Of a DNA stretch of 38,937 nt, positions 2,078 to 38,937 are shown in pieces (position 1 is the first letter of the stretch; each line of letters opens with the position of its first letter). This DNA comes from Anaerolineales bacterium Chloro_02. GTDB taxonomy: Bacteria > Chloroflexota > Anaerolineae > Anaerolineales > Anaerolineaceae. The notes below the pieces were generated by a model, which worked only from the letters and a program-made list of their open reading frames with translations, ran no database searches and was not told the DNA's origin. The stretch covers positions 1 to 38,937 of the forward strand of contig LUZV01000032.1 of the NCBI GenBank assembly GCA_001603765.1. Reading direction: 5' to 3'. The translations under genes were made by a program, and so were the position numbers.

Positions 2078-2104
2078 TCCAACGAGGAGTATGTAATAAA
2101 AAAG

Positions 2105-5229: not shown

Positions 5230-5232
5230 CTC

Positions 5233-6932: not shown

Positions 6933-7161
6933 GCCTGAATTTTACCTTATTTCACTCACTGAATTGTTTGGCGGGAAGCTGGTCTTAATGTGAACATAAT
7001 TAACTATCAATACTGTAAAGATTATGCCTGTTGTGGCGAAATCGCTGATAAGTAAGCTGCTTGGTGCCTTTCCTGAACAGGCGCTTGCTGCGGAAATGGT
7101 TGTTGGCCGGTTTTATCTCAACTCAGGTATGCTAAAATCGAAGAAAAGGCTGGAGGTCAGG

Positions 7162-7647: not shown

Positions 7648-7648
7648 C

Positions 7649-8254: not shown

Positions 8255-8333
8255 GGTCTGGGCTCTCTGGTTTCTGAGCGTTGGGCTCCTGGGATGTTAT
8301 AATCAAAAAAAGCTTGGGAAATTGTAACTTACT

Positions 8334-8819
8334 ATGGAAAAAATGCGCATACCTCTACGGACAAATATCGGATACTTTTTCAATAGACCGATCGGTTTTT
8401 CACGGGATTTCACAATGGAATATCCCGAAATCTTCATTGATCCCGATTTGCAGTTATTTAACCTGTCAGGGCGCTACACAATCTCGCGCACACGCGAAGG
8501 TCTTCTACTGCAAGCCTGGATTGAAGCGGAAATTGAGAGCCAATGCAGCCGCTGCCTGGATTTATTCCGCGCTAAGGTTTCAACCGATTTTGAGGAACTT
8601 TATGTTTTTGGCAATCGAGTGCAGGAAGAATTGGATGAGGAAGTTGTACCTGAGGATGGATATATTGACCTCGGGAAACCCATCCGGGATTATTTGCTGC
8701 TTGACCTGCCGATGAATCTGATCTGTAAGCAAGACTGCAAAGGCATTTGCGTGGAGTGCGGCATCAACCTCAACCTGCAGATATGCGAGCATACTGACAG
8801 ACGGATAATCTTCGATTAA
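8334..8819 (+). CDS. yceD: YceD/DUF177 family protein
   Basis: Cys pairs CSRCL and CKGICVECGINLN have the spacing typical of DUF177. Confidence 0.7.
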   Translation: MEKMRIPLRTNIGYFFNRPIGFSRDFTMEYPEIFIDPDLQLFNLSGRYTISRTREGLLLQAWIEAEIESQCSRCLDLFRAKVSTDFEELYVFGNRVQEELDEEVVPEDGYIDLGKPIRDYLLLDLPMNLICKQDCKGICVECGINLNLQICEHTDRRIIFD

Positions 8820-8859
8820 TTAGACAAACGTTTATCCCAGTTCGATAGATGATAAAATA

Positions 8860-8880
8860 CCTCATCAAGTTTTGATGAGG
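8860..8880 (+). promoter_or_regulatory. 9-bp hairpin overlapping the metG Shine-Dalgarno (or a weak yceD terminator)
   Basis: CCTCATCAA-gtt-TTGATGAGG. The right arm contains the GAGG of the GAGGAG SD located 7 nt before the ATG at 8890, and is followed by AGTTTTGA. Confidence 0.35.
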
Positions 8881-8889
8881 AGTTTTGAT

Positions 8890-10695
8890 ATGACTGAGAA
8901 CATATTGATTGCCGTTGCATGGCCTTACGCCAATTCGGATATCCACGCCGGGAATATCACTGGGTCTCACCTTCCGGGTGATATTGTGGCTCGATACCAT
9001 CGCTTGCGCGGTCGGAATGTTCTGATGGTCAGCGGTTCAGACTCGCACGGCACCGCAATTACTATCAAAGCGGACCAGATGGGCAAAACCCCTGAAGAAA
9101 TTTACAAATACTACCATCCCCGTTTTATCGAGCTGTTTCAGAAGCTGGGGATTGGCTATGACATTTTCACTTCCACCCACACCGAAAACCACTTTGACGT
9201 GGCGCAAAAAGTGTTCCTAACCCTGCTTGAAAACGGCTACCTGAAAACAAGCGTCTCCAAGCAATGGTATAGCGAGGCGCTTGGTCGATTCCTGCCGGAC
9301 CGCTATGTGGAGGGAACGTGCTATTTCTGCGGCAACACCGACGCGCGCAGCGACCAATGCGAAAAATGCGGGAATGAGTTGGAAGCGGAAAAACTGATCG
9401 ATCCGCGATCCAGAGTGGACGGGTCGAGACCTGAATTAAGAGAAACTGAACACTTTTTCCTCGATCTTTCTTCATTGGAACCACAAATCGAGAGCTTTCT
9501 GAAAGCGCGTGAAAGCTATTGGCGCCCGAACGTCCTGAGGCAATCGCTTGGGACGATCCAATCAGTGGGGCTTAAACCGACATCCATTACGAGAGACCTT
9601 GACTGGGGTATTCCGGTGCCGCTGGAGGACTGGAAGGGCAAGAGTCTCTATGTCTGGTTTGAGGCGGTGATGGGCTACCTGTCTTCCACTATTGAGTGGG
9701 CTAAGCTGGTGGGAGAGGCCGATTCATGGCGCAATTGGTGGTTTGATCAAAACGCGAAAGCTTTTTACTTCATCGGCAAAGATAATATTACGTTCCACGC
9801 CGTTACGTGGCCGGCAGAGCTGTTGGGAATGGGTGATGGGTTCGACCGCCGAATGGGCACAGAGGATCCGCAGCGTTTGGTTTTGCCCTACAACGTGCCG
9901 GCAAATGAGTTTATGAACCTTGAAGGGCGTAAGATCAGCGGTAGCCACAACTGGGCGGTCTGGGGTCTGGACGCGCTGGAGAGATACGACGCGGACGCGA
10001 TCCGCTATTACCTGACTGTAGCGATGCCGGAACAGCGCGACACGGATTGGGACTGGGAGGAGTTCTTCCAGCGCAACAATAACGAGCTTGTCGCGACTTG
10101 GGGCAACCTGGTGAACCGGGTGCTTTCGTTTACATATAAAAATTTTGACGGAAAAATCCCAAATCCAGAACAGCTGCGTGAAAGTGACCAAGAGCTGCTG
10201 CGGGTGATTAGGGCCGGGTTTGATAGCGTTGCAGCAAAACTTGAACAAGTGGAGCTGAAATCTGCGCTGGCTGAGGTGATGGCGCTGGCCGGTGAGGTGA
10301 ACAAGTATCTGGACGTCCACGGGCCCTGGTTTGAGATCAAATCCGACCGCGAACAAGCCGCGAAATCGCTCTATACCGCGATTCAGGCAATTGATTGGAT
10401 CAAAGTGATGAGCGCTCCTTTCCTCCCACACACAAGCGAAACTCTTCATCGGCTTTTGGCAAACGAAACCCCGCTTTTTGGCAGTCAATTCACACAATCG
10501 GTGACGGATAACCTCGGAGAGCACGAAATCTTGGGTCTGGATTCCCGCGGGGCTGAAGCCCGAACCGGAAATGACGTCTGGAAAGCCGGGATGCTGGAAG
10601 GTGGAAGAACTTTCAATCAGCCTGTACCGCTAATCAAAAAGCTTGATCACAAAATTGTTGAAGAAGAACGGGCGAGGCTGGGTAAGAGCTCATAG
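8890..10695 (+). CDS. metG: Methionine--tRNA ligase (no C-terminal Trbp111 domain)
   Basis: WPYANSDIHAGN...ARYHRLRG, a single zinc knuckle CYFCGN..CEKCGN, and a KMSKS-position loop reading RKISGS. The ATG at 8890 has a GAGGAG SD. Confidence 0.88.
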   Translation: MTENILIAVAWPYANSDIHAGNITGSHLPGDIVARYHRLRGRNVLMVSGSDSHGTAITIKADQMGKTPEEIYKYYHPRFIELFQKLGIGYDIFTSTHTENHFDVAQKVFLTLLENGYLKTSVSKQWYSEALGRFLPDRYVEGTCYFCGNTDARSDQCEKCGNELEAEKLIDPRSRVDGSRPELRETEHFFLDLSSLEPQIESFLKARESYWRPNVLRQSLGTIQSVGLKPTSITRDLDWGIPVPLEDWKGKSLYVWFEAVMGYLSSTIEWAKLVGEADSWRNWWFDQNAKAFYFIGKDNITFHAVTWPAELLGMGDGFDRRMGTEDPQRLVLPYNVPANEFMNLEGRKISGSHNWAVWGLDALERYDADAIRYYLTVAMPEQRDTDWDWEEFFQRNNNELVATWGNLVNRVLSFTYKNFDGKIPNPEQLRESDQELLRVIRAGFDSVAAKLEQVELKSALAEVMALAGEVNKYLDVHGPWFEIKSDREQAAKSLYTAIQAIDWIKVMSAPFLPHTSETLHRLLANETPLFGSQFTQSVTDNLGEHEILGLDSRGAEARTGNDVWKAGMLEGGRTFNQPVPLIKKLDHKIVEEERARLGKSS

Positions 10696-10772
10696 CTCAT
10701 TAGCAGAATTTCGGAAATAGCGAGAAGGGTTAGCGTCAGATCAACTTTGATGTTACCCGGCGCGCAGCGGCT

Positions 10773-11483
10773 TTAGGTTTGCGGCGAGCAGTTGTTTTGG
10801 GTGAATTCTTTCAGGTAGAAGGGCAAGTCGGCGAGCAAATTACCCATCAATCTCTCAAGTCGGGAACGCCAAAGGTCAACTTCGCCATCGGTTTCGGAGG
10901 CATGGCGCGTTATAAGATCCGAGACTGATCTCAGGGCAAGCCAGGGTATCTGATTTCTGGCGGCGACCCAGGCAAAAGCGCCTGTTTCCCAATCCGCGGC
11001 AACAGCCTGATGGATTTTGGTGAGCCTGTCGAAGGCGGAAAAATCAACATCCTGGTCTGCCGAAGCGAGCCGGGCAAAGCGCGTGTTTGGCGGCAGTGGG
11101 CTTTTAATCCATGAGTATCCATTTGAGGACTGATAGTGCTTTAATGCCGCGATCGGATCATCCATGCGTTCAAAAATGTCATAAACAACCACGTCATTGA
11201 CGATAAGCGTCTCGCCAATCACGCTATATCCCTCAAACCCACCACAAGTTCCGAGATTAATGATCAAGTCTGGTTGATAGCGGTCGATGATGAATTGCGC
11301 TGCGCTGGCAGTGGAGATTTTTCCCCAGCCGGAATGGAAAAAGAGGCATGGAAAACCGGACAGCTCAAACCCAAAAGACTCGCCAAGTGGGGTTTGGTGA
11401 ATAGCGTTCGGCTGTAGAATTGCGCGAACAGCCGCCCATTCGCCATTGGCGCTGACTAAAACAGGTATTGGGGTGGTTGGCAT
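10773..11483 (-). CDS. PNP_UDP_1-family nucleosidase (MTA/SAH nucleosidase- or futalosine hydrolase-like)
   Basis: SGWGKISTASAAQFII..PDLIINLGTCGGF and ETGAFAWVA...ALRSVSDL parallel the MTAN motifs GIGKVNAA / SAGG / EMEA / RxISD. Confidence 0.6.
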   Translation of the reverse strand: MPTTPIPVLVSANGEWAAVRAILQPNAIHQTPLGESFGFELSGFPCLFFHSGWGKISTASAAQFIIDRYQPDLIINLGTCGGFEGYSVIGETLIVNDVVVYDIFERMDDPIAALKHYQSSNGYSWIKSPLPPNTRFARLASADQDVDFSAFDRLTKIHQAVAADWETGAFAWVAARNQIPWLALRSVSDLITRHASETDGEVDLWRSRLERLMGNLLADLPFYLKEFTQNNCSPQT

Positions 11484-11486
11484 TTT

Positions 11487-12248
11487 TTATGCCGGCTGGA
11501 CTTTTTTGCCGACCGAGGCGATATAAGCGGTGAAGCGTTCCTGACCGTCCAGGTCGAGCACGGCATTCGCCTGTTCGTCTTTAAATGCGGCGATCGCGCA
11601 GACACCGTAACCAATGGATTCGGCAGCCAGGTACAAATTCTGGCAAACGTGCCCCGCGTCAATATCGATATAACGATAGGCGCGAGTCCCATAGCGCCAG
11701 GACGTACGGTAAACCTCCGCAGCCCAGAAGAAGGTAACCGCGGAAGTGAGGACCTGCCTTTGGTTAGTGGTGGCGGCATGCGCTTCTTTGAGCGACTGGT
11801 TACCCGGTCGGAAGACTTCAAGCGCATGAGGTTCGGGCAGATAGTGGTAGATACCAGGTTCCAGGTCGCTCACTCGCTGGACGGCGAGATAGGTCTCGAA
11901 AGGATGGCGCGACCCCGCGGACGGCACGTAGCGCCGCGTGACCTTTTCAGGTTGGGGCGCTTCGCGCAAACCCTGAGTGAGCAGGAGTAAATAGCCGAGC
12001 TCAGCGAGAGACATAAAAGCTTCGGTATCGTATCGCCGGTGGGTGCGGCGGTTGAGGGCAAGCTGATAGAAATTGTTATCAGGTGGGGTAAACAGGGTAG
12101 GGTCGGGCAGCGCCACACGCGGCAAATTTGGGTCTGAGGCAGCTAAATACTGCGGGAAAGGTTCGCCCAACTCTTCGGATGAAGGTCCCATATTGGCATA
12201 GCGCGTAGCCCGCAGAAAAGCATCTCCAGTTGGTTCAAATTTCGCCAT
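11487..12248 (-). CDS. SagB-type dehydrogenase domain protein (nitroreductase superfamily)
   Basis: LNRRTHRRY..., YVPSAGSRHPFETYL...GIYHY and a C-terminal nitroreductase-like segment. Confidence 0.7.
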   Translation of the reverse strand: MAKFEPTGDAFLRATRYANMGPSSEELGEPFPQYLAASDPNLPRVALPDPTLFTPPDNNFYQLALNRRTHRRYDTEAFMSLAELGYLLLLTQGLREAPQPEKVTRRYVPSAGSRHPFETYLAVQRVSDLEPGIYHYLPEPHALEVFRPGNQSLKEAHAATTNQRQVLTSAVTFFWAAEVYRTSWRYGTRAYRYIDIDAGHVCQNLYLAAESIGYGVCAIAAFKDEQANAVLDLDGQERFTAYIASVGKKVQPA

Positions 12249-12258
12249 TTTTCACCTC

Positions 12259-12363
12259 TTAGAAACGGATCATCGAAAGGATCATAGCCAACACAATAAT
12301 CACGGCGAGAACCGCCATGAGTATCTTATTTGCTCGACCTGAGTTGCTTGTGTTTTTTGCCAT
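12259..12363 (-). CDS. 34-aa single-TM small protein (not in ORF track)
   Basis: MAKNTSNSGRANKILMAVLAVIIVLAMILSMIRF. The ATG is 2 nt after the uvrC stop, with GGAG 5 nt upstream, and the ORF ends 10 nt before the SagB-like gene. Confidence 0.4.
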   Translation of the reverse strand: MAKNTSNSGRANKILMAVLAVIIVLAMILSMIRF

Positions 12364-12365
12364 AC

Positions 12366-14234
12366 TTACTCCAATTGTGCTTTGATTGCCTCAGCCATTT
12401 CCGAAGAAATGCCCTTAATTTTTATGATTTCCTCCACCGGAGCGGCAAGGATGCCATCGATTGAGCCAAAGCGAGAAATGAGCTCTTTTCGCCGGGCAGG
12501 TCCAATGCCAGGGATGGAATCCAAGCGTGAAACCAAACCGATTTTACCACGTTGATTGCGGTGCGCGGTGATCGCAAAGCGGTGAGCTTCATCGCGAATC
12601 CTTTGAATAAGATAAAATCCCTGAGAATGATCATCCAGGCGAACTGAGTCGGTTTTCCCCGGCAAAAACAGCTCTTCTTCCTGCTTTGCCAACCCCACGA
12701 CAGCGAATTGCCCCTGGAGGTCAAACTCCTGAATGACTTCCACTGCCTGACGCAGCTGCCCTTTTCCGCCGTCAACAATCAGAAGGTCGGGCAGCAATGA
12801 GAATGCCAGGTCAGGTTTGTGACCGGGTTGATCTTTTTCTTGCTGCTCAGTTACATAGCGGTTTATTCTCCGTTTGAGCACTTCGCGCATGGAAGCGAAA
12901 TCGTCCGGTGTGCTAAGAGTCTTGATGTTAAAGCGACGATAGTGCTTTTTGGCGGGCACTCCCTGCTCAAAAACAACCATACTGCCGACACTGGCGGTAC
13001 CCTGGATGTTTGAGATATCGTAGCACTCGATCCGGTTGGGCGCTTCGGGCAGTCCCAAAATCGCCTGTATCTCAGAAAGCGCCTGATGTTGACGGTCTTT
13101 ATCGGCTTTCCATCGCATTTCGAGGGATTTGAGCGTTTCCTGCGCGTTCTCTGAAGCCATCTTCACCAATTCTTTGCCCTGACCGCGCTTGGGGACAGTG
13201 AGCTGCACTTTTTCGCCGCCCCGGCGGGTGTTTAGCCATTCTTTGATGATGCGGGCTTCTTCAACCTCTTCAGGTAGTAAAACTTTGTTTGGGACGTAAG
13301 CCGCCTGGGAGTAAAACTGCTTGATAAACTCCTCGAGAATATCGGAATTGTCTTCGGCTTCGGTTCCTTCGAGGATGAAATATTCCCGCCCGATCAGTTT
13401 TCCAGACCGAATAAAGAAAACCTGCACACAGGCTTCACCCTTTGAGCGCGCCATGGCAATGACGTCCGAATCCTGACGTTCATCCGAAATGATTTTCTGC
13501 CGCTCCACAACCCTTTCAATCGCCTGTATCTGGTCGCGGTAGACAGCCGCTTTTTCGTAGTTGAGGTTGTCGGAGGCGTCCGCCATGGCTTGCCTGAGGC
13601 GGCTCATGACCGGGTCGGTGCGACCTTCGAGGAATTTGCAGAGGTCATCGATCATCTGGCGATATTCCGCCTGGTTGACCGCGCCGACACATGGCGCAGA
13701 GCAAAGCTTGATGTCGTAATAGAGACAGGCGCGCTCGTCCTTGCCGGTAATTTCACGCGCGCAGGTGAGATAGGGGAAGATTTTTCGCAGCACGTCGAGC
13801 GTTTGGTGGACTGCCCAAACAGAGGTATAGGGACCAAAGTAGCGTGAGCCGTCGTTGATCATGTTGCGGGTGACTGTTAGCTTCGGGAAGGGGTCAGACC
13901 AATGGACTTTGATGTAAGGGTAGCGCTTATCGTCTTTAAGCCGGACGTTGTAAAAAGGGCGGTGCAGCTTTATGAGATTCATCTCGAGAATCAAAGCTTC
14001 GAGTTCGGAAGCGACCACAATCCACTCGATGTCTCTGATTTTCCGCACCATCTGCCGGGTTTTATAGGTTTGGTCGGAGGATTGTTGGAAATAGGAGCGC
14101 ACGCGATTTTTAAGGTTGATAGCTTTACCAACGTAAATGATGGCGCCTTCTCCATCCTTCATCAGGTAGCAGCCAGGTTTATCGGGCAGGGTGGCAAGAA
14201 TGCCCTTAATTTTTTCCGAATACTCCATAGGCAC
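12366..14234 (-). CDS. uvrC: Excinuclease ABC subunit C
   Basis: GIY-YIG motif PGCYLMKDGEGAIIYVGKAINLKNRV, a UVR domain, an Endo V-like domain and a C-terminal (HhH)2. Confidence 0.95.
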   Translation of the reverse strand: MPMEYSEKIKGILATLPDKPGCYLMKDGEGAIIYVGKAINLKNRVRSYFQQSSDQTYKTRQMVRKIRDIEWIVVASELEALILEMNLIKLHRPFYNVRLKDDKRYPYIKVHWSDPFPKLTVTRNMINDGSRYFGPYTSVWAVHQTLDVLRKIFPYLTCAREITGKDERACLYYDIKLCSAPCVGAVNQAEYRQMIDDLCKFLEGRTDPVMSRLRQAMADASDNLNYEKAAVYRDQIQAIERVVERQKIISDERQDSDVIAMARSKGEACVQVFFIRSGKLIGREYFILEGTEAEDNSDILEEFIKQFYSQAAYVPNKVLLPEEVEEARIIKEWLNTRRGGEKVQLTVPKRGQGKELVKMASENAQETLKSLEMRWKADKDRQHQALSEIQAILGLPEAPNRIECYDISNIQGTASVGSMVVFEQGVPAKKHYRRFNIKTLSTPDDFASMREVLKRRINRYVTEQQEKDQPGHKPDLAFSLLPDLLIVDGGKGQLRQAVEVIQEFDLQGQFAVVGLAKQEEELFLPGKTDSVRLDDHSQGFYLIQRIRDEAHRFAITAHRNQRGKIGLVSRLDSIPGIGPARRKELISRFGSIDGILAAPVEEIIKIKGISSEMAEAIKAQLE

Positions 14235-14306
14235 ATTTTAACAGATAAAGATAAGCAAAAAATATGAGAATAAGGTGGGGGTTGGTATAATCTCAGAAGA
14301 GGAATT

Positions 14307-16058
14307 ATGCCGATCCGAGTCTTGCCAGAAACAATTGCCTCACAAATCGCCGCCGGAGAGGTGGTGGATCGCCCTGCCTCGGTGGTGAAAGAGCTGCTGG
14401 AGAACGCCATTGATGCCGGCGCGCGGCAAGTCGAAATCGAAATTCGGCAGGCTGGTAGGGAGCTGATTCAGGTGACGGATGACGGCTGCGGTATTCCCGC
14501 TCAGGAGATATCATTGGCAGTTTGCCGCCACGCCACCAGCAAACTGAGCGTCGCAGAAGATCTGTTTAAGATTCAAACGCTGGGATTCAGAGGCGAGGCG
14601 CTTGCCTCGATTGGATCCATTTCACGGCTGACGCTGACTTCCGGCACTGCTGAAAATGCGGTTGGGGGTAGGCTGGTGGTGGAGGGCGGTTTGGCGGCGG
14701 AAATCTTGCCCACCACTGCCGCGGTTGGCACGCGCGTGAGTGTGGAAGATCTGTTTTTCAACCTCCCAGCCAGGTTGAAATTCTTAAAGTCCGACACAAC
14801 TGAGAGCCGGCATATTGTGGGTCTGGTTACACGTTACGCGCTGGCTTATCCGCATATTCGCTGGTCAATTATCCAGGACGATAAACAGGTTTTTCAGACA
14901 ACCGGCAGCGGCGAGCGGCTCGAAATCCTGCAAGCGCTGTTTGGGGCATCAGAGGCTGCCAGATTAATGCCGATCAGCTTTACCGAAAACAACTTAAAAC
15001 TCGAGGGATTCATCAGCAACCTCTCTCTTACTCGCTCCAATAGGCGCGATATTACAGTTTTTGTGAACGGTCGCTGGGTTCAGGACCCAACCCTGACCTC
15101 GGCGGTGATCCGCGCTTATAACACCCTCTTGATGGTCGGACGTTACCCCGTAGCGGTGATTTTTTTGACGATTCCGCCGGAGTTAGTGGATGTAAACGTC
15201 CACCCCGCTAAGGCGGAAGTGCGCTTTCGCGATCAGGATGCCGTCTTTAGTGGCGTTCAGCGGGCAATCCGCAGGGCTCTATTGGCTTTTACGCCTGTGC
15301 CGGATCTGAATAGCGCGAGTTTGTGGGGTAGAAGCACGCCTGATTTACCTGAACAGACCTGGAAACAGCCTTTTCAGGCTGAAGACGCCGATCGGGCGGA
15401 TGAAGAGGGGCTTCCGGGTGCGGGCTTCAGACCAGCTTCCAACCCAGCTCAGGCTCCGCTGCCAGGCAGTCATCTGCCTCTCCTGCGACTGATTGGACAA
15501 GTCGCGTCGACCTATTTAATCGCCGAAGGACCTGACGGGCTTTATTTGATTGATCAGCATGCCGCTCATGAACGAGTATTGTTTGATCAACTTATGGCGC
15601 AATATAATGCTCAAAGCATTCCATCTCAGGCGCTTTTATCGCCAACGGTTATTGAACTATCGCCTGAGCAAGCTGGGGTTTTGGAACAAGAACTCGAGGC
15701 AATGACCCGTCTGGGGTTTGAAATCGAGCCATTTGGACCTAACACTTTCATAATTCGATCGATTCCGATCGTGGTGGAAAAAAGCGATCCGCGGGAAGCA
15801 ATTCGCGCGGTTGTCAGCGCGTTTGAAGAAGATGAAACCCCGTTGATGGCTGAGGTTGAAGCCAGGATCGCGGCAAGAGTGTGCAAACGCATGGCGGTGA
15901 AAGTGGGTCAGGTTTTATCGGAAATTGAACAGCAAAACCTGCTTTTCAACCTCGAATCCAGTCAATCACCGCGCACCTGTCCGCACGGCAGACCCACGAT
16001 GATACATCTGAGTGTGAACTTGCTTGAAAGACAATTCGGGAGGACTGGGGCGATATGA
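14307..16058 (+). CDS. mutL: DNA mismatch repair protein MutL
   Basis: GHKL ATPase motifs IAAGEVVDRPASVVKELLENAIDAGA and DDGCGI, plus a C-terminal dimerisation domain with CPHGRP. Confidence 0.95.
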   Translation: MPIRVLPETIASQIAAGEVVDRPASVVKELLENAIDAGARQVEIEIRQAGRELIQVTDDGCGIPAQEISLAVCRHATSKLSVAEDLFKIQTLGFRGEALASIGSISRLTLTSGTAENAVGGRLVVEGGLAAEILPTTAAVGTRVSVEDLFFNLPARLKFLKSDTTESRHIVGLVTRYALAYPHIRWSIIQDDKQVFQTTGSGERLEILQALFGASEAARLMPISFTENNLKLEGFISNLSLTRSNRRDITVFVNGRWVQDPTLTSAVIRAYNTLLMVGRYPVAVIFLTIPPELVDVNVHPAKAEVRFRDQDAVFSGVQRAIRRALLAFTPVPDLNSASLWGRSTPDLPEQTWKQPFQAEDADRADEEGLPGAGFRPASNPAQAPLPGSHLPLLRLIGQVASTYLIAEGPDGLYLIDQHAAHERVLFDQLMAQYNAQSIPSQALLSPTVIELSPEQAGVLEQELEAMTRLGFEIEPFGPNTFIIRSIPIVVEKSDPREAIRAVVSAFEEDETPLMAEVEARIAARVCKRMAVKVGQVLSEIEQQNLLFNLESSQSPRTCPHGRPTMIHLSVNLLERQFGRTGAI

Positions 16059-17026
16059 ATGACGCGACCATGAGCGGGCTCTGGCTGGAAGATCGGAAAT
16101 TGAGCTTCCGCCGCGATCTGCCTTTGCCGAAGTTGGAGGGGGATGAGGTCCTGATCAAGGTCATAATGGCTGGGGTTTGCTCAACTGATTTAGAAATGGT
16201 GAAAGGATATTATCCTTTTAAGGGCGTTCCAGGGCACGAATTCGTTGGCAGAGTCATAGAAAGCAGCGGACATCCGGAACTCCTTGGCAAACGGGTAACA
16301 GGCGATATTAACATAAGCTGCGGAGAGTGTGAACGCTGCCTGAACCAGGAGCCAAGCCAATGCATGCGGCGAAGGACGCTTGGAATCTTTGATTACCCGG
16401 GTGTTTTTGCGGAGTTCTGCAAACTGCCAGCAAAGAATCTGACCGTTGTCCCTGATTCGGTTTCGGATGTGGTGGCGGTTTTTGCTGAGCCAACAGCCGC
16501 GGCGCTGCGAATTTTGGACCAGGTGAAGGTGAGACCGAGCGACCGGGTGATTGTGGTCGGCGCGGGCAGGCTGGGCTTGCTGATCGCGCAGGTATTGAAA
16601 AACACCTGTTGTGACTTAAAAGTGGTGGTTCGCAGACCTGAACCCGCGGTAATTTTGGCAGCCCTGGGCATTAATGCGGTCTATCCTGATGAAGTACACG
16701 GTGAGTTGGCGGATATTGTCATTGAGGCGACCGGCTCACCAGAGGGATTTGACCTTTCGCGCTCTTTAACAAGGGCAAGGGGAACATTGGTCTTAAAATC
16801 AACGTTTGCGGGGGATGTCCGCATTAACCTGTCAAAACTTGTCGTGGACGAAATTTCTTTGATCGGGTCGCGCTGCGGGAATATAGCAGCAGGATTGCGA
16901 GCCCTTTCTGGCGGAATGGTTCAGGTAGGGGAAATGATCGATTCAGTCTTTTCTCTTGAGCAGGGCTTTGAGGCAATCACACGCGCTGGAGAACCTGGCG
17001 TATTGAAGGTTCTGGTTAAACCATGA
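16055..17026 (+). CDS. Zn-dependent medium-chain alcohol/threonine dehydrogenase-like oxidoreductase
   Basis: GVCSTDLEMVKG...PGHEFVG, a structural-zinc Cys cluster CGECERC and a Rossmann motif VVGAGRLG. Its ATG overlaps the mutL stop (ATGA). Confidence 0.8.
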   Translation: MNDATMSGLWLEDRKLSFRRDLPLPKLEGDEVLIKVIMAGVCSTDLEMVKGYYPFKGVPGHEFVGRVIESSGHPELLGKRVTGDINISCGECERCLNQEPSQCMRRRTLGIFDYPGVFAEFCKLPAKNLTVVPDSVSDVVAVFAEPTAAALRILDQVKVRPSDRVIVVGAGRLGLLIAQVLKNTCCDLKVVVRRPEPAVILAALGINAVYPDEVHGELADIVIEATGSPEGFDLSRSLTRARGTLVLKSTFAGDVRINLSKLVVDEISLIGSRCGNIAAGLRALSGGMVQVGEMIDSVFSLEQGFEAITRAGEPGVLKVLVKP

Positions 17027-17071
17027 AATTCCACTCGCATCGACGGCTGATTGTGCTATAATGATGCCTCA

Positions 17072-17146
17072 CGGGGCGTGGCTCAGCCCGGATAGAGCGC
17101 ACGGTTCGGGACCGTGAGGTCGGCAGTTCAAATCTGCTCGCCCCGA
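17072..17146 (+). tRNA. tRNA-Pro (anticodon CGG)
   Basis: Hand-folded cloverleaf. Acceptor CGGGGCG/CGCCCCG, D-arm GCTCAGCCCGGATAGAGC, anticodon stem CACGG/CCGTG with loop TTCGGGA, T-arm GGCAG-TTCAAAT-CTGCT, discriminator A. No CCA is encoded. Confidence 0.9.
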
Positions 17147-17239
17147 CAAAAAACCTCTCAACGAGGAAAATCTGAGGAAAAACAACCTCGGATAGCAAGG
17201 ATAAGCTGCAACGGACATCACGGATTAGCAGCAGAAAGG

Positions 17240-17270
17240 CACCAGTTTATAAAAAAAACTGGTGTTTTTA
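17240..17270 (+). terminator. Rho-independent terminator downstream of tRNA-Pro
   Basis: Stem CACCAGTT / AACTGGTG with an A-rich loop, followed by TTTTTATT. Confidence 0.6.
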
Positions 17271-17331
17271 TTATTCCAAACCAAACCATGCGTTACCCAA
17301 ACCACCGTTAGCTGTTTAGGAGGCAGCAAGG

Positions 17332-18255
17332 ATGAAAAACGTTACCCTTTCTCAAGCTCTCGAAGGATATATCCTCTTTATGGAGCCAAAGCTTTCTACA
17401 TGCACACTCCGTGACTATTTCAACACTTTTCGCAAATTTCAAGCTTACTTGGGTCATGACCCATTGCTCGATGAGATTGATGTTGAAGATATTGCAGGAT
17501 TTATGGGTCAATATCAGCATCTCAAGAAGAAAACCTTACTCAACTACCATGTCGGGCTCTCCGCTCTGTGGACCTGGGCATTTCAGCAAGAAATTGTTGA
17601 TAAAAAGGTCCCTCAAAGTTATCAACCCCCGAAACCGGATGAAATTGCTATCTTGCCATATTCTGAAACAGATATTAAAGCGATGTTGGCCAGCTGCCAA
17701 AAGAGAAAACCGTATTCACTCTCTGGTCAACGTGAGACAGCAACGGACTTTCCAGAAGGTTTGCGATTGAAAACAAGTGTGCTTCTGTTGCTTGACACTG
17801 GGATCCGTGCAAGCGAGTTCTGTAACCTGAAATATAAGGATATCGATTTGCAAAATAAACATATCATCGTAATGGGAAAAGGAAGAAAGGAACGTCAGAT
17901 ACCCATCTCCAGTAGAACAGCGCAGGCTGTTTGGACGTATTTTTCAAGCAAGCCTGACATGACAATCAACACACCTGCTTTCGCGACAGCCAACGGCACT
18001 TCGATTCTGCGAGACAACCTTCTCAAATCTATCTATAGACTGGGAGAAAGGGCAGGGGTCCAGGACCCTACCATCCACCGCTTCCGCCATACTTTTGCAA
18101 TCAACTTCCTGCGTAATGGTGGCGACATTTACACGCTGCAATGGATCCTTGGCCATTCTACGTTGGATATGGTCAAACGCTACCTGGCCATCGCTCAAGT
18201 CGACGTGCAAGCCGCCCACCGCCGAGCCAGCCCGGTGCTAAACTGGGGGCTATAG
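17332..18255 (+). CDS. int: Tyrosine-type site-specific integrase
   Basis: An N-terminal SAM-like core-binding domain, then the catalytic residues in TGIRASE (R), HRFRHTFA (HxxR) and LGHSTLDMVKRY (H..Y). A GGAGG SD is present. Confidence 0.92.
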   Translation: MKNVTLSQALEGYILFMEPKLSTCTLRDYFNTFRKFQAYLGHDPLLDEIDVEDIAGFMGQYQHLKKKTLLNYHVGLSALWTWAFQQEIVDKKVPQSYQPPKPDEIAILPYSETDIKAMLASCQKRKPYSLSGQRETATDFPEGLRLKTSVLLLLDTGIRASEFCNLKYKDIDLQNKHIIVMGKGRKERQIPISSRTAQAVWTYFSSKPDMTINTPAFATANGTSILRDNLLKSIYRLGERAGVQDPTIHRFRHTFAINFLRNGGDIYTLQWILGHSTLDMVKRYLAIAQVDVQAAHRRASPVLNWGL

Positions 18256-32813: not shown

Positions 32814-34801
32814 TCTTTAGCTCTCCCATAAACCAGCGAGCATTGACAATACGCCACCTCACTGGCTCCAGCTCGATAATCTCCTGGCCACATCGCCCCG
32901 TTGGGGAACGTGTCTCTGATTCCCACGGTTACGCCGTTCAGCGCTGCGTGGGTGTCCCTCGGGTGGCCGCTTCTGGTAACCCAGGTCTTGGTTTTGATCA
33001 ATCCGCTTTTTTCCGCGACGTCATATTCCGCGAAATTCTCCAGCTCGTGCACTCTGAACATCACAAATCGCAATAAACCGCTGGCCAGCAGTGCCGCAAA
33101 GACCTTCTTCACGGCCTCCAGTGGATCTTCACCACCCATTACTTTTGCCAGCTGTTCATACGTGCTTCTATTCAGGTTTTCCGCTGCTATCCGCGAGTTG
33201 GTTTTCAGGAACTCTTCCATCCATTCAGGGTTGTACGCAAACGCCAGCTGACTGGCAAAAGCTCTGGCGTATGCCCCTGCCGTTGTTTTTGAAAGCGCAA
33301 AGAAATCCGCCGAGACTTCCCTGTTCCATCGTTCCTCATCCCACCATAGAGGGAGACTTTTCGCGCTTTTGATCAGCGGCAATACGGCGTCCCGCTGCCT
33401 GGTAAGCGTTTTGCTGACCAGCTCGGTCCAATCCTTCACCGCTTCTTCAGTGATCTCCGGAAATTCAGGCTTCACCGTGAAACCCGCTGCCTTCTTCCCC
33501 CCCTCTGCTTGCCTTTCAACCCCCTCCACGGAGGGGGGCAGGGGGGTGGGTGCTGTCCTGTCAACCGACTTCCCGTCATTCGGTTCCTGATAGGTCGCTG
33601 GCGTGCTCATGTTCAGCGGCGTCACCAGCTGATCAGCCTCAGGGCTGTCAATCCTCGGCAGGTTCATCCGTTCCCTGGCTTCGTTGGCAGTCATGTAGGG
33701 CACGCCCACAGCCTGGCGGAAACTTGCTGTCTGCTTCTCAAAATCACCCTGCAGCTTCGCTTCAATGTTGAATTCAACGTAAGCGCCCTGCATGTCCGGA
33801 AATTCACTCAAATATTGCGTGTCAAAGTCATCCTGCACAGATCTGAACAGCGGACCCAACACATCGGTGTAAAGGCTCTTGTTTTGGCTTTCGATGTTGT
33901 TAAAAGTTGAACGCTCTAAGATCCCCACCATTGGCGGCGGGATGTGATAAGCTCTGGCGCACTCTTCCCGCGTCAGTTTCCGGCTTTCGATGTACAGCGT
34001 GTCCTTTGGTGCCCAGCTGATCGGCTTGAACTGCATCCCCTCTTCCAGCACCGCGGTCTTGCCTGCATTGTCCTGACCGGAATAAAGCGATTCCCACTGC
34101 GCCCTGAAGTTTGCCCTGGCTGCGTCACTCCAGTCATTAGCTTCTGGCGGCCGTTCAATCACCCCGCCAATTCGGGCAGCGTTCTGCCAGAACTTAGAGG
34201 AATACTTTGTGTTTTCGTGCTCCTCTGCCAGAATCTCGCGCAACCCTTCCAGCGGCGAGATGCCGTAGGTGTTGTTGTGCGGGTTGTAGGTCCTGAAGTG
34301 GATCACCTCGCTGGGTTCAATCTTCAGCTCACTTTTTCCCAGATTGACTCGGTAAAGGGTCGGGGTCAAAACGCCTTCCACACTGACCAGCATGTAAGGG
34401 ATCCGCAGCAGCCCCTTGAGCTTGTTATCACCATCCCTGATCTTTAGCAGGTACCCATTCCCGCTGACAAACATGTCAGAAAGCACCGATTCCAGCATCT
34501 TGTAGGTTGTGACCTTGTTGTCATTCGGCAGCGGCCGTTTCAGGATCTGCACGGCTTCATGCTCCCGCAGCCTTACCCTGCCGTTGTCTTTGTCGCGTGT
34601 GTACACGTGCAAGCCTGGGTGCGCCATATTGCGCGCCAAAAAGTCCACACAGATCTTGACGTTGTTATGCCTGCGGTACATGGCTTCATAATCCAGCGTG
34701 TAATCACTGTACGTGTCAAGGCTGATAAAGCCTCCGTTCGTTGGCCACCAGCCAGCTGGCAGGGACGAGAGTGTCGCTTCAGAGATGATCGTGCTACCCA
34801 T
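32810..34801 (-). CDS. Portal protein (HK97 family) fused to a Mu-F/SPP1 gp7-like minor head domain
   Basis: The N-terminal ~410 aa are portal-like. The C-terminus THAALNGVT...WPGDYRAGASEVAYCQCSLVY carries the Phage_Mu_F signature. Repeat copy B forms the linker. Confidence 0.8.
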   Translation of the reverse strand: MGSTIISEATLSSLPAGWWPTNGGFISLDTYSDYTLDYEAMYRRHNNVKICVDFLARNMAHPGLHVYTRDKDNGRVRLREHEAVQILKRPLPNDNKVTTYKMLESVLSDMFVSGNGYLLKIRDGDNKLKGLLRIPYMLVSVEGVLTPTLYRVNLGKSELKIEPSEVIHFRTYNPHNNTYGISPLEGLREILAEEHENTKYSSKFWQNAARIGGVIERPPEANDWSDAARANFRAQWESLYSGQDNAGKTAVLEEGMQFKPISWAPKDTLYIESRKLTREECARAYHIPPPMVGILERSTFNNIESQNKSLYTDVLGPLFRSVQDDFDTQYLSEFPDMQGAYVEFNIEAKLQGDFEKQTASFRQAVGVPYMTANEARERMNLPRIDSPEADQLVTPLNMSTPATYQEPNDGKSVDRTAPTPLPPSVEGVERQAEGGKKAAGFTVKPEFPEITEEAVKDWTELVSKTLTRQRDAVLPLIKSAKSLPLWWDEERWNREVSADFFALSKTTAGAYARAFASQLAFAYNPEWMEEFLKTNSRIAAENLNRSTYEQLAKVMGGEDPLEAVKKVFAALLASGLLRFVMFRVHELENFAEYDVAEKSGLIKTKTWVTRSGHPRDTHAALNGVTVGIRDTFPNGAMWPGDYRAGASEVAYCQCSLVYGRAKE
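33497..33552 (-). repeat. G/C-tract hairpin repeat, copy B (in frame, portal-MuF linker)
   Basis: CCCCCCTC...CCCCCTC-cacg-GAGGGGG (33520..33537), followed by CAGGGGGGTGGGTGCT. It encodes APTPLPPSVEGVERQAEGGKK. Confidence 0.7.
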
Positions 34802-35003
34802 TCAGCACCTGCATAAAATCGACATCCGCGGTGAATATCAACACCTCACCGTCAACCTTTCGGGTGTGGCCGTTTTCGTGCAGCACCGCATCTCGCAGCA
34901 CCAGGTAATCGCCCCGGCGTTTCCAGAGCACTCCCTGGAAGGCTTTGTCGGATTTCAGGTTCACGATCACCTTGCGCACAATTGCATAAAATCCAAATGT
35001 CAT
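34794..35003 (-). CDS. Small protein with Sm/LSm-like sequence pattern
   Basis: 69 aa: KVIVNLKSDKAFQGVLWKRRGDYLVLRDAVL...DGEVLIFTADVDFMQVL. It is coupled by ATGA to the TerL stop and overlaps the portal start. Confidence 0.55.
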   Translation of the reverse strand: MTFGFYAIVRKVIVNLKSDKAFQGVLWKRRGDYLVLRDAVLHENGHTRKVDGEVLIFTADVDFMQVLNG

Positions 35004-37615
35004 AGGACCTCCAGACCTCTGGTTTCGTAAACAGATTTATGCGGCTCAGTCGCGTGTCTGATTGCCCGGTCTGTCGCCATGATTCCGGCAACGATGCCGT
35101 CAATCTTCTGCCGGCTTTTTGACTTGTCCGGTTTGATGTTCCCAGCAGCGTCCGTGGTGGTCATCACGTTATCCGCCATCCAGCGCAAAACAGGGTGGCT
35201 CCCATGCCGCAATCGCTTGTTCAATACCAGGCGCTCGACTTCTTTGGTTGGTGGGCTCATGCTCACATACCCCTGGCCAAACCCCACCAGAGTGAACCCC
35301 ATATTCATCAGCGTCTGGCTGATCTGCGTTGCTCCCCAGCGGTCAAAAGCGATTTCTTTGATGTTGAACCTTTCGCCCAGCTTTTCAATCTCTGCCAGGA
35401 TCCAGTCGTAATCAATCACGTTCCCGGGTGTCGCGATCATGAACCCCTGGTCCACCCACCCCTGGTACAGCTCCCGGTCTTTGAAAGATCGGTCTGTCAG
35501 CTTCTCTTCGGGCACGAACAAGCGCGGGATCCAGCTGTGCATCTCTGGTTCTCCGGGTTCATTCGGCACGTCCAAAACAAACGCGGCAATGTCAGAGACC
35601 GATGCCAGGTCAAGCCCACCGTAAGCAACCGAGCCTTCCAGCATCTTTTCGTCCAGCTCGTCAACCCCGCAGGCGTCCCATGCAGCCATATCCAGCCAGC
35701 GTGTCTCCTGACTCGTCCACATGTTGAGATACAGCCGTTTGAAGGTGTTCTGGTATGCAGGGCTGTTTTTTGCCTTCTCAAACTCCTGCCTCAGATATTC
35801 GATCTTGATTGTGTCCCCCAGGCTTGGGTTTGCCTTTGCCCAGGTCTCTTCGGATTCCCAGTCGTCCGTTGGGGACGCCTCGTAGATTGCCGGATAAAAC
35901 CAATCCATCTGGATGATGCCGTCTCTCACCTGGCAGGCGCGTTCATAAACTTCGTAACAGATAGATGTGCGGTCGTAACCGGCGGTAGTCATCGAGAGCA
36001 AAAGCGGCTGCCGCCTGGCTCCAAAGCTCGTTTGGATCGTGTCGTACAGTTCCCGGTCCTTCTGGGTGTGCAGCTCGTCAAACGCGGCTCCGTGCAAGTT
36101 GCCGCCGTGCTTTCCGCCTGCATCGCTTGAAACCACCTTGTAGACGCTTGCCCCTTGCTTGCCGACGATGGCATTGCGAAAAGGCGAAACCACCTGCGAG
36201 AGGGTCGAGTTCTGCATGACCATGAACCGCGCTGTGTCAAAGATCAGCCTGGCTTGCTCCCGGTCTGCGGCGATCGAGATCAACTCCGCGCCTGGTTCCT
36301 GGTCTACAATCAGCAGGTAGAGCATAATTGCCGCGCCTAAGGCTGAATTGTGCGTAGGAATCAAATGTCTGCCAGCGAGGTACATCCCTCCATCAACTGT
36401 TATACAATTGACAATTCTTTTTCCAGTACGCACCACGTTAGAGATCTTCCGCGTTTGGCTTCTTTGTTTAGTAACAGGCATTTCTTTTTGCCGGGAAGAT
36501 TTCCGCTTTACATAAGAAACATCGATGTCGTTGTAAGCAAAAAATTGAGCTCTGTATCTGGGGCCACAATCTTTACCGTAGAGTTTTGCGCGGTCAACCA
36601 TCACTCGAGGCTTATACCCAAGCCCAACCAACAATTCAACAACTTGCTCAAATAACAATCTGTTTACAAGGACTATTTCACATTGACCAGCTTTTGATAC
36701 AAAACCATCGGTATCCATAATCCCGCGCAACAATTCCATACGCTGTTCTGTAGACCCCATGAGGTATTCTGAGGGTATATGTTTATTGTGAACAAGTCCG
36801 TTTCTTATTAACTGCTTTTTGAATTTTCCCATGCCGACCAGATAGGAGTAGCGATACTTGTATTCAGCTTCATACCCATATTCTGATAACTTCTCAACAA
36901 TTTCAGGCTCTGATATTGTTATCCTTGCGGTATTGCAATCTCCGTCCCCCAGCCAAACACCAAGAACATATGGAGGAATTTCATACTCCTTTTCAGGGAA
37001 TTGTAGGGGTTTAGCTACATCAACTGAATGTACTATATCGTTGCGTGCGCCAGCCCTAAGTGTTTTGGCTATCTCTTTAGTGGTAACAAGGGGTTTTTCA
37101 CCTCTTACCCATTTAGGTTTTCCTGTGTGGACAGTTCGATTAGTTTTCCATTCATGATTTTCATGGGCAATAATGGCATCATCCCCCGAAAAATCCACAT
37201 AGTAACATTCTCCTTCATAATGCGGGGTAACATAACGAACTTTTGTGGGCACTCCTTCTGGGGTAAATACATAATCGCCTGGGGCTAAATCACCGTGGTT
37301 TTTCCATCCTTCGGTAGTCATAATTGGAGTGTTAACTTCCAAAGCTTTTCCGTTTTTCCTGGCCACAAATACAAATGCTTCCCGATATCGCCTGAAACCG
37401 GTCTCTTTTTCTTTCCAGCCAAACAGATTGCTTACCAGTTCCTTTTCCCAGTCCAAAAGCAAAAATGGTTTTCCGCCCAGATCACCTTTCACGTGGGTTA
37501 TATACGTTTCGATAAAATCAACCGCCACTTGCCCAGCCACAGCGTCATATGCGTACCTTTCGAGGTCACACTTCCAGGGATCGTAGATCTTGGGTGCTGT
37601 CACTTTCTCACTCAT
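35000..37615 (-). CDS. terL: Terminase large subunit (Terminase_1 family) interrupted by an intein
   Basis: The Walker A reads ARKNGK|...|SALGAA once the insert is removed, and C-terminal nuclease domain motifs are present. The ATG at 37615 (SD AGAGGG) is preferred over the GTG at 37621. Confidence 0.9.
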   Translation of the reverse strand: MSEKVTAPKIYDPWKCDLERYAYDAVAGQVAVDFIETYITHVKGDLGGKPFLLLDWEKELVSNLFGWKEKETGFRRYREAFVFVARKNGKALEVNTPIMTTEGWKNHGDLAPGDYVFTPEGVPTKVRYVTPHYEGECYYVDFSGDDAIIAHENHEWKTNRTVHTGKPKWVRGEKPLVTTKEIAKTLRAGARNDIVHSVDVAKPLQFPEKEYEIPPYVLGVWLGDGDCNTARITISEPEIVEKLSEYGYEAEYKYRYSYLVGMGKFKKQLIRNGLVHNKHIPSEYLMGSTEQRMELLRGIMDTDGFVSKAGQCEIVLVNRLLFEQVVELLVGLGYKPRVMVDRAKLYGKDCGPRYRAQFFAYNDIDVSYVKRKSSRQKEMPVTKQRSQTRKISNVVRTGKRIVNCITVDGGMYLAGRHLIPTHNSALGAAIMLYLLIVDQEPGAELISIAADREQARLIFDTARFMVMQNSTLSQVVSPFRNAIVGKQGASVYKVVSSDAGGKHGGNLHGAAFDELHTQKDRELYDTIQTSFGARRQPLLLSMTTAGYDRTSICYEVYERACQVRDGIIQMDWFYPAIYEASPTDDWESEETWAKANPSLGDTIKIEYLRQEFEKAKNSPAYQNTFKRLYLNMWTSQETRWLDMAAWDACGVDELDEKMLEGSVAYGGLDLASVSDIAAFVLDVPNEPGEPEMHSWIPRLFVPEEKLTDRSFKDRELYQGWVDQGFMIATPGNVIDYDWILAEIEKLGERFNIKEIAFDRWGATQISQTLMNMGFTLVGFGQGYVSMSPPTKEVERLVLNKRLRHGSHPVLRWMADNVMTTTDAAGNIKPDKSKSRQKIDGIVAGIMATDRAIRHATEPHKSVYETRGLEVL
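36347..37345 (-). mobile_element. Intein (333 aa) with LAGLIDADG homing endonuclease, class-3 WCT signature
   Basis: Block A ALEVNTPIMTTEG. Block B IIAHENHEW. LAGLIDADG motifs LGVWLGDGD and LLRGIMDTDGF. Block F IVNCITVDG. Block G LIPTHN followed by Ser+1. Confidence 0.85.
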
Positions 37616-38150
37616 GAGCACCCTCTTCTACTTTCTTACGTGCGGTATTAAACAGACTGTCTGCCAGGGAAAGGCTTTTGTCGTTTGGAGAGAGCGCTTT
37701 TACCCGTGTCCGCTCAGCTGGAGTAAGTCCAAACTGCGTCAGCATGTCCTTCACTTGCTTCCACGCCGTGTTGGCAATCCCGACATTCGGGTGTTGATAC
37801 ACCGTGGCTTTGTCGGTGATCACAATGTTCCCGGACTTCATCAAAGCTTTTCTGGCAGCTACCATGTCGCCATACGCCATACAAAGCAGCTCGAGCGCCG
37901 TATAGTCACCGCTGGAATACAATCCTGCCTCTTTCAGCTGTGGACCCAGCTCCCGCCATAAACGCTTACCGTAAAGGTTCATCGTGCTGGGCGGCTTAGG
38001 AAACGCCTCAGGAACTTCAAAGACAGCCTGTGAGTTGTTCACACGGCTCTTTTTGAGCGTTCCCTGCGCTTCTTTGATTGCATCTGGCACTGGTTTCCTA
38101 CCGCGCACGCCTTCTCCATCTTTCGCCGGCTGGGTTGTGCTCTGCCTCAT
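37608..38150 (-). CDS. terS: Terminase small subunit (P27 family)
   Basis: RGRKPVPDAIKEAQGTLKKSR...LWRELGPQLKEAGL...DYTALELLCMAY. The start is uncertain: either the ATG at 38150 or the GTG at 38108, which has GGAG 5 nt upstream. Confidence 0.7.
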   Translation of the reverse strand: MRQSTTQPAKDGEGVRGRKPVPDAIKEAQGTLKKSRVNNSQAVFEVPEAFPKPPSTMNLYGKRLWRELGPQLKEAGLYSSGDYTALELLCMAYGDMVAARKALMKSGNIVITDKATVYQHPNVGIANTAWKQVKDMLTQFGLTPAERTRVKALSPNDKSLSLADSLFNTARKKVEEGAHE

Positions 38151-38445
38151 GGCAGCGCCGGCATAATGCTTCCAGATTGTCTTCATCATCCGCGCCACCT
38201 TCACGTTTTCGGATGATGTGATGCGCCAGCTCCGCGGGTTCTCCGCATCGTTCACAGAGGGGGTTGTGAGCCAGGAAGATCTTGGATCGCTTCTGCCAGA
38301 CGGGATCGTCATACGTTATGTCCCTTGGACGTTCCCACTGTTTCAGGTATTCCCGCTGGTGTTCCGGACATCTGTAAACATTCGGAGTGGATACCAGGTT
38401 TGGACAGCCGGGCACCATGCAGGGTCTCTTAGGACTGATCGCCAT
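38098..38445 (-). CDS. HNH endonuclease (terminase-associated)
   Basis: CxxC...CxxH zinc-finger layout CMVPGCPN, CERCGEPAELAHHI and LCRRCHEAEHN, immediately upstream of TerS. Confidence 0.85.
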   Translation of the reverse strand: MAISPKRPCMVPGCPNLVSTPNVYRCPEHQREYLKQWERPRDITYDDPVWQKRSKIFLAHNPLCERCGEPAELAHHIIRKREGGADDEDNLEALCRRCHEAEHNPAGERWRRRAR

Positions 38446-38830
38446 TGCTTTCTTCCTGCTTACTGATGCGCGTTTTCGGCTTTCGCTTGACCTCGTTCAG
38501 GATTTCCCGTGCTTGCGCGTCGTGAGCCTGGAAATTCCCGAAAAACACCGTTGTGTCAGAGCGCACCTCACGCATCTCAACCACCATCGACTGCGTCACC
38601 TGTGTCAGATCCTGCAGACTCTTCTGCACATCCGCCATCGCGCAATTATTCTCTTCGCGCTGCTCCTTGTTGAACAGCCGCCACTTGTCGTCAATGTCAA
38701 ACATGAACTGCTGCCACTTTTCCGATTGTCGGCTGAACCAATTCAACAGCGCCGCCACAAATACAATGAACAACACCACAAACACCGCCTGTTCCCAGGC
38801 AACGTATGGAATAGCCTCACCCGCGTTCAT
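38429..38830 (-). CDS. Membrane-anchored coiled-coil protein (unknown function)
   Basis: One N-terminal TM helix (AVFVVLFIVFVAALLNWF) followed by a charged helical region. Confidence 0.5.
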   Translation of the reverse strand: MNAGEAIPYVAWEQAVFVVLFIVFVAALLNWFSRQSEKWQQFMFDIDDKWRLFNKEQREENNCAMADVQKSLQDLTQVTQSMVVEMREVRSDTTVFFGNFQAHDAQAREILNEVKRKPKTRISKQEESNGDQS

Positions 38831-38937
38831 TTACCCGCCCTTGAACCGCTTACGTCCAGCTCTGCTGGAAAGGTGCCTCGTAGGGAAGGGGACAAGCCCC
38901 TTCCGTCCACTCCCTCCTGGGAGGGGGATAAAGGGGG
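38827..38937 (-). CDS. 3' end of an ORF entering from beyond the window, carrying repeat copy C
   Basis: The frame is open from the window edge: PPLSPSQEGVDGRGLSPSLRGTFPAELDVSGSRAGK*. Its TGA overlaps the next ATG (ATGA). Confidence 0.35.
   Translation of the reverse strand, partial: PPLSPSQEGVDGRGLSPSLRGTFPAELDVSGSRAGK
38881..38937 (-). repeat. G/C-tract hairpin repeat, copy C (truncated by window edge)
   Basis: TCCACTCCCTCCTGGGAGGGGGATAAAGGGGG aligns with copy A. A second hairpin, GGAAGGGG-acaag-CCCCTTCC, precedes it. Confidence 0.6.

Follow-up and report, generated by a model that had tools for sequence, protein, structure and literature searches.

The contig LUZV01000032.1, a stretch of 38,937 nt that was analysed in full and is here called the window, runs at its right-hand side into an HK97-like prophage whose large terminase subunit (TerL) is interrupted within its P-loop by 333 additional residues. 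These residues very probably constitute a class-3 intein of full length, in which a LAGLIDADG homing endonuclease with two motifs is embedded, and the host of the prophage is probably a member of the Anaerolineae. Elements at the same site have already been described in many phage terminases, and the intein of the window is a divergent further example of what is a very widespread lineage.

An in-frame insertion in the Walker A motif of TerL

The TerL precursor is encoded on the minus strand by an open reading frame (ORF) that is open throughout (35000..37621) and amounts to 873 aa when counted from a GTG codon at 37621. The true start is probably not this GTG but an ATG at 37615, which gives an 871-aa precursor and is favoured because it is preceded by GAGGG, overlaps with the stop codon of the small-subunit gene (terS) and yields the form present in public assemblies, where a lookup matched the 871-aa protein and returned no match for the 873-aa one. 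Residue numbers of the whole ORF are given here from the GTG, and those of the intein (Ala1, Cys314 and so on) from the start of the insert. The parts of the precursor gene are as follows, with the evidence for each in brackets.

35000..37621, minus strand: TerL precursor ORF, a large terminase of the Terminase_1 type (ORF list; Pfam TerL_ATPase, split, and TerL_nuclease)
37346..37621, minus strand: N-extein, with the first half of Walker A, ...VARKNGK, at its C-terminal end (homologue alignment, translation)
36347..37345, minus strand: intein of 333 aa, in which a LAGLIDADG homing endonuclease domain interrupts a HINT splicing domain, putatively of class 3 (gap in homologues, phmmer against the PDB, AlphaFold2, Foldseek, GC content)
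35000..36346, minus strand: C-extein, beginning with the Walker A Ser (SALGAA...) and holding the remaining ATPase domain and the nuclease domain (Pfam, homologue alignment)

The insert occupies 999 nt, or 333 codons in frame (aa 93-425 in the GTG numbering, aa 91-423 counted from the ATG), and it separates the Lys of the Walker A motif from the Ser that follows it (ARKNGK/S, where a slash marks the point of insertion here and below). The two junctions read ...FVFVARKNGK/ALEVNTPIMTTEG ... HLIPTHN/SALGAAIMLYLL. A sequence-only reading of the window had already delimited an in-frame insert of this length in the Walker A motif, and both its coordinates and its junctions proved exact.

That this segment is a true insertion is observed directly in homologues that lack it, and their clean gap, the sequence and structure matches given below and the base composition lie far beyond what chance would produce. 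TerL homologues were numerous among 5.8 billion proteins searched, and eight intein-less ones, 52-91% identical to the TerL of the window (among them P0003, P0004 and P0006), were aligned with it. The sequence-only reading had proposed this comparison, and in all eight the segment is precisely absent, as a single clean gap of exactly 333 residues with the flanking RKNGK and S(A/P/T)L unshifted; further intein-less TerLs of about 520-555 aa were present among the search results. At the DNA level, an intein-less allele (L002) reads AAG AAC GGT AAA/TCA GCT, in the wider context ...GCGAGAAAGAACGGTAAA/TCAGCTTTGGGAGCG..., and the window carries 999 extra bases at this point. In-silico removal of the insert restores the Walker A motif ARKNGKS and leaves a predicted spliced TerL of 540 aa with the GTG start and 538 aa with the ATG start, much as the sequence-only reading had anticipated with its figure of about 540 aa; the closest intein-less homologue, P0003, has 540 aa. 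The Pfam TerL_ATPase match, which falls in two stretches in the unspliced ORF, becomes one contiguous stretch after in-silico splicing (profile positions 2-175 of 178), and its score rises from 88.5 to 104.3 bits.

The insert also differs from its surroundings in base composition, with a GC content of 0.42 against 0.54 in the exteins, and the dip is seen in a sliding profile. The N-extein is itself low in GC, and since the intein-less allele shares this trait it is a property of the gene. No clear co-conversion tract, nor any odd extein divergence beside the insertion, was found in sliding identity comparisons with intein-less alleles. An alternative in which the extra segment is an accessory domain that is retained rather than excised was rejected, being contradicted by the intein-less homologues and by the invariant catalytic residues described below. 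Three plus-strand ORFs that overlap the insert (36350-36655, 36858-37157 and 37028-37288) were considered as free-standing genes and likewise rejected, as they are antisense shadows of a well-supported minus-strand coding region.

Class-3 signature and predicted fold

Inserts at the same TerL site were extracted from 96 further homologues of metagenomic origin, so that, together with the intein of the window, 97 inteins could be compared. The splicing blocks and the residues of interest were located by translation and in this alignment as follows.

37307..37345, minus strand: block A (ALEVNTPIMTTEG), residue 1 being Ala (translation; 97-intein alignment)
37205..37207, minus strand: Cys47, which aligns with Cys48 of the Mycobacterium smegmatis DnaBi1 intein (phmmer alignment)
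37142..37183, minus strand: block B (DDAIIAHENHEWKT), including HENHEW, with His64 at position 10 and Trp66 at position 12 (translation, alignment)
36371..36415, minus strand: block F (IVNCITVDGGMYLAG), including VNCITV, with Cys314 at position 4 (codon 36404-36406) (translation, alignment)
36344..36367, minus strand: block G and residue +1 (HLIPTHN/S), with Thr331 at position 5, His332, Asn333 and Ser+1, the last being Ser426 of the ORF (translation, alignment)

The Ala at residue 1 leaves the element with no N-terminal nucleophile. In the class-3 inteins of Tori et al. (2010, PMC2807308) a W-C-T triplet has Trp as residue 12 of block B, Cys as residue 4 of block F and Thr as residue 5 of block G; such inteins begin with a residue other than Cys, Ser or Thr and have Ser or Thr, rarely Cys, at +1. 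In the intein of the window the triplet positions are held by Trp66, Cys314 and Thr331. Across the set, His64, Trp66, Cys314, Thr331 and His332 are invariant (97/97), Asn333 is kept in 96 inteins, and position +1 always holds Ser or Thr. Residue 1 is Ala in 88 of the 97, and Cys, Ser or Thr occurs there in none.

The closest solved relatives point the same way. When the insert was compared by phmmer with all PDB sequences, the top three matches were class-3 mini-inteins, namely 6bs8 (E = 2.7e-14), 6rix (2.6e-13) and 6riy, with E-values ranging to 1.2e-12, and both ends of the insert were aligned, over 72-75 residues at the N-terminus and 32 at the C-terminus. In the alignment with 6bs8, Cys314 is paired with the catalytic Cys118, THN with THN, and HEW (His64-x-Trp66) with HQW; His64 and Trp66 likewise match His65 and Trp67 of the M. 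chimaera DnaB1 and MP-Be DnaB inteins. By contrast with the PDB search, scans of the insert against Pfam and NCBIfam fired no dedicated intein model and gave only sub-threshold LAGLIDADG matches and incidental matches to intein-containing proteins, so that the identification rests on the PDB, homologue and structure evidence.

Taken with the predicted structure, these comparisons make it very likely that the insert is a class-3 intein, its splicing chemistry being read from homology. The sequence-only reading had arrived at the same class from Ala1 and the W-C-T residues; all of these, and a Ser at +1, are borne out by the translation, and the blocks and the two LAGLIDADG motifs that it named lie at the expected positions.

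The predicted fold is that of a HINT domain combined with a LAGLIDADG domain. An AlphaFold2 model of the intein, built on a 90-sequence alignment, reached a predicted local distance difference test score of 95.5 and a predicted template modelling score of 0.93. In Foldseek searches of the PDB the best full-length structural match was PI-SceI (E = 4e-19, template modelling (TM) score 0.77), other full-length matches being the TliVMA and PhoVMA inteins and PI-PfuI. The class-3 DnaB mini-inteins covered the splicing domain (TM about 0.8 relative to the target), and in all more than 25 intein structures were matched, including PI-SceI and the DnaB, DnaE and Prp8 inteins, along with Hedgehog HINT domains. 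The endonuclease domains of PI-SceI and PI-PfuI were strongly matched as well, and the two motifs of the predicted endonuclease are the following.

36938..36964, minus strand: first LAGLIDADG motif, LGVWLGDGD, with the acidic residue Asp134 (translation; Asp134 in 92/97)
36701..36733, minus strand: second LAGLIDADG motif, LLRGIMDTDGF, with the acidic residue Asp213 (translation; Asp213 in 96/97)

Comparison with an intein-bearing relative (L005) gave a non-synonymous divergence (dN) of 0.17-0.27 and a synonymous divergence (dS) that had reached or passed saturation, for the splicing and endonuclease parts alike; the values were obtained by the Nei-Gojobori method, which left several segments undefined because of synonymous saturation, and they are used only to the extent that dN is far below dS. 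This pattern points to purifying selection on what would be both functions of the element, splicing and endonuclease.

Proposed splicing and homing, and the alternatives

The mechanism proposed for the intein is modelled by homology on the MP-Be DnaB, M. smegmatis DnaBi1 and M. chimaera DnaB1 inteins (PMC2807308, PMC6195587, PMC7664689). After translation, Cys314, activated by His64 together with Thr331 and Trp66, would attack the Lys92-Ala93 bond to form a branched thioester at block F; the N-extein would then be transferred to the hydroxyl of Ser+1, Asn333 would cyclise and release the intein, and an O-to-N acyl shift would yield the sequence ...ARKNGKSALGAA..., with an intact ARKNGKS P-loop and thus a working packaging ATPase of 538-540 aa. 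As the P-loop of the precursor is split by 333 residues, the precursor is not expected to bind ATP, and splicing would therefore be a prerequisite for packaging, as it would be for every P-loop intein.

The released intein, for its part, is predicted to cut intein-less terL at GGxAAA/TCA during co-infection and then to copy itself in by homing. Such homing would explain the foreign base composition of the element and why it is so unevenly distributed among near relatives: no intein is present in the TerLs that are closest by their exteins (91%, 87% and 82% identity), and farther ones (75% and 74%) carry inteins that are 73% and 69% identical to that of the window.

Several points have to be set against this account of a functional class-3 intein with its endonuclease. 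We infer splicing, the branched thioester and the endonuclease activity alike from related elements, and the 2016 study of mycobacteriophages showed splicing at the TerL sites b, c, e, f and g, the 'a' site intein being outside its tested set (PMC5050341). The Pfam matches to LAGLIDADG_3 (19.0 bits, cut-off 22.5) and Hom_end (15.5 bits, cut-off 21.1), which fall at the second LAGLIDADG motif, are both under the gathering threshold. The saturation of synonymous sites, moreover, renders the dN/dS values rough.

A different chemistry might be envisaged, in which Ser+1 attacks the N-terminal junction directly, in the manner of the class-2 KlbA inteins, and Cys314 has a structural role only. Ala1 alone would fit class 2 also, but the known class-2 inteins are archaeal KlbA orthologues that have Cys at +1 and are without the W-C-T triplet (PMC2807308), whereas the intein of the window has the full triplet and Ser+1 and is homologous (E about 1e-14) to an intein whose splicing dies when the block-F Cys is mutated. 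This route is accordingly hard to credit.

Prophages often decay, and as this one extends beyond the end of the window one might suppose that it is defective, that the intein is a splicing-dead remnant and that TerL is a pseudogene at the level of the protein. Against this stand the integrity of every class-3 catalytic residue, an ORF unbroken over 873 codons, and a low non-synonymous divergence from the relative at saturated synonymous sites. The neighbouring genes (HNH, TerS, portal, protease and capsid) are also intact ORFs with strong Pfam matches, and the identical 871-aa protein is found on an independent contig of another sample. A decayed element thus seems very improbable.

One further proposal would add to the account of a functional class-3 intein rather than replace it. 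The sequence-only reading had suggested that splicing may act as a post-translational gate on packaging, which is speculation and had already been raised for TerL inteins (PMC5050341). With such a regulatory gate, oxidising or metal stress would make Cys314 unavailable, for instance through a disulfide with Cys47, and TerL would be held as an inactive precursor for as long as the stress lasts. In DnaBi1, H2O2 induces a reversible disulfide between Cys48 and the catalytic block-F Cys, which blocks splicing in vivo (PMC6195587); Cys47 aligns with this disulfide partner and is kept in 85 of the 97 TerL P-loop inteins, Ser or Ala standing in its place in 8, although the DnaB study called Cys48 non-conserved (PMC6195587), and earlier authors have suggested that TerL inteins may splice conditionally (PMC5050341). 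On the other hand, nothing in the window bears on regulation; all substitutions of Cys48 tried in DnaBi1 abolished splicing, so that the conservation of Cys47 may reflect catalysis or folding and not sensing (PMC6195587); the mycobacteriophage TerL inteins that were tested spliced rapidly (PMC5050341); and selfish homing fully accounts for the patchy distribution and the intact endonuclease. A regulatory gate is on balance unlikely. Its most specific form, in which a Cys47-Cys314 disulfide would hold TerL inactive under oxidative stress in a probably anaerobic Anaerolineae host and free it on reduction, is if anything slightly less likely still.

The prophage and the relatives of its intein

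The left 17 kb of the window (1-17300) are bacterial chromosome, with rpoC-like (26-2077), gyrA (2156-4642), metG (8872-10695), uvrC (12366-14234) and mutL (14307-16058) genes, among others. The prophage opens at a tyrosine integrase gene (17332-18255) and continues past the right end of the window at 38937; among its products are a GH25 lysin, siphovirus tail proteins, an HK97-type capsid protein, an S78 protease, a portal protein, TerL, a Terminase_4 small subunit and an HNH endonuclease. Among species-representative genomes the nearest intein-less TerLs are those of metagenome-assembled genomes (MAGs) of Anaerolineaceae and Anaerolineales, at 77% and 55-59% identity, and it is for this reason that the host is taken to be probably a member of the Anaerolineae.

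The HNH gene (38098-38445, minus strand) lies directly upstream of the Terminase_4 terS (37608-38312, minus strand), which is the usual HNH-TerS-TerL-portal order of HK97-like cos phages. The longest TerS ORF (234 aa) has about 215 nt in common with the HNH ORF, and the TerS proteins of relatives have 167-193 aa; the real start of terS is therefore probably further downstream. A different sequencing run yielded an independent contig of 21.8 kb (locus L088, Logan SRR36204435) that carries an identical 871-aa TerL precursor about 1.3 kb from the contig end, and the same prophage or phage is thus present in at least one other sample.

Class-3 inteins in phage terminase large subunits, mostly in their P-loops, were noted in 2009-2010 (PMC2807308), and Kelley et al. 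(2016, mBio, PMC5050341) gave the name 'TerL1-a' to the position that follows the invariant Lys and precedes the nucleophilic Thr, a 'classic' P-loop insertion. In that study the mycobacteriophage TerL inteins b, c, e, f and g spliced, b and c cut DNA, and the idea of conditional splicing was raised. A 2025 preprint places most of the 287 class-3 inteins that it counts in actinophages in TerL and Cas4. The intein of the window is matched by 826 records of a phage database, 519 of them nearly full-length, and the best of these matches, at about 36% identity, are the TerL of Manda-like mycobacteriophages (GK/T) and a DnaB-like helicase of a Brevibacterium phage (GAGK/T). A megablast comparison of 34000-38937 with 50,697 phage records found no match; there is therefore no close sequenced phage relative among them, and no annotated reference to transfer. 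The set of species-representative genomes also contains inteins at this site, in prophages of Mobiluncus curtisii, Ruminococcus callidus and several MAGs of Clostridia and other Bacillota, where residue 1 is usually Gln.

The nearest described counterparts are the TerL1-a inteins of the phages Manda (gp8), Eureka and Goku (PMC5050341), which reside in the same Terminase_1 TerL family and at the same Walker A Lys/Ser or Lys/Thr site. Both they and the intein of the window have about 331-333 aa with a LAGLIDADG endonuclease; that of Manda aligns with the intein of the window end to end and has the same class-3 signature (Ala1, H-x-W, V-C-I-Q, T-H-N). The junctions of Manda gp8 are ARKNGK/A...THN/T, with Thr at +1, whereas those of the window enclose the intein between ARKNGK and Ser. 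Identity between the two is about 36% in the intein and about 33% in TerL overall, and the TerL1-a hosts are actinobacteriophages, in contrast to the prophage of a probable Anaerolineae (Chloroflexota) bacterium described here.

The M. smegmatis DnaBi1 (6bs8) and M. chimaera DnaB1 (6rix, 6riy) inteins, the best sequence matches among solved structures, are likewise inserted in the P-loop of an ATPase, and their catalytic residues align with those of the window (block B His-x-Trp, block-F Cys, C-terminal Thr-His-Asn and Ser or Thr at +1). They are, however, mini-inteins without an endonuclease and are found in the cellular replicative helicase DnaB, whereas the intein of the window has an endonuclease domain and is found in a phage terminase. 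Splicing of DnaBi1 has been shown experimentally to need the block-F Cys (PMC6195587), and the DnaB1 intein of M. chimaera has been studied structurally and biochemically (PMC7664689). The founding class-3 intein, MP-Be DnaB of mycobacteriophage Bethlehem (PMC2807308), compared here by its published block positions, shares the W-C-T positions, the lack of an N-terminal nucleophile, the Ser or Thr at +1, the phage origin and a full length that includes an endonuclease domain, but its residue 1 is Pro rather than Ala and its host protein is DnaB rather than TerL. PI-SceI (yeast VMA1), the archaeal VMA inteins and PI-PfuI have the same architecture of a HINT domain with an inserted LAGLIDADG domain; they differ in being class 1, with Cys1, in residing in other host proteins, and in having only 13-15% identity to the intein of the window.

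Some of the relatives occupy other positions or other proteins. The DnaB-like helicase of Brevibacterium phage Rousseau (L089) carries in its P-loop (GEGAGK/ALALDTP...IPTHN/T) a full-length intein 36.6% identical to that of the window, which illustrates the movement of the lineage between unrelated P-loop ATPases. One TerL homologue of 1282 aa (P0016) has a second class-3-like intein (PLALDTP...IPTHN) after the equivalent of residue 451 of the TerL of the window, and another (P0054) has an insert at the same point; in a third (P0083) the P-loop is free of inteins, and an ALALDTP...IPTHN intein lies within the nuclease domain, near residue 833. Mini-inteins of 157-162 aa that lack the homing endonuclease occur at the same GK/S site in some TerLs (P0104, locus L036), and the lineage therefore shows the usual cycle of endonuclease loss.

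For the annotation of this prophage the consequence is that the ORF of 871-873 aa should be treated as a TerL precursor with an intein, and that work on its homology or structure should use the spliced sequence. The conserved pair of Cys47 and Cys314 offers the only forward-looking lead, in that redox-conditional maturation of the terminase is directly testable; if such a gate were true, the cysteine toggle of DnaBi1 would extend to virus assembly, and the 88% conservation of Cys47 would reflect selection for sensing. More broadly, a single search recovered 96 further TerLs whose P-loop holds an intein at the same place, which supports the view, already published, that class-3 inteins have spread through the P-loops of phage ATPases.

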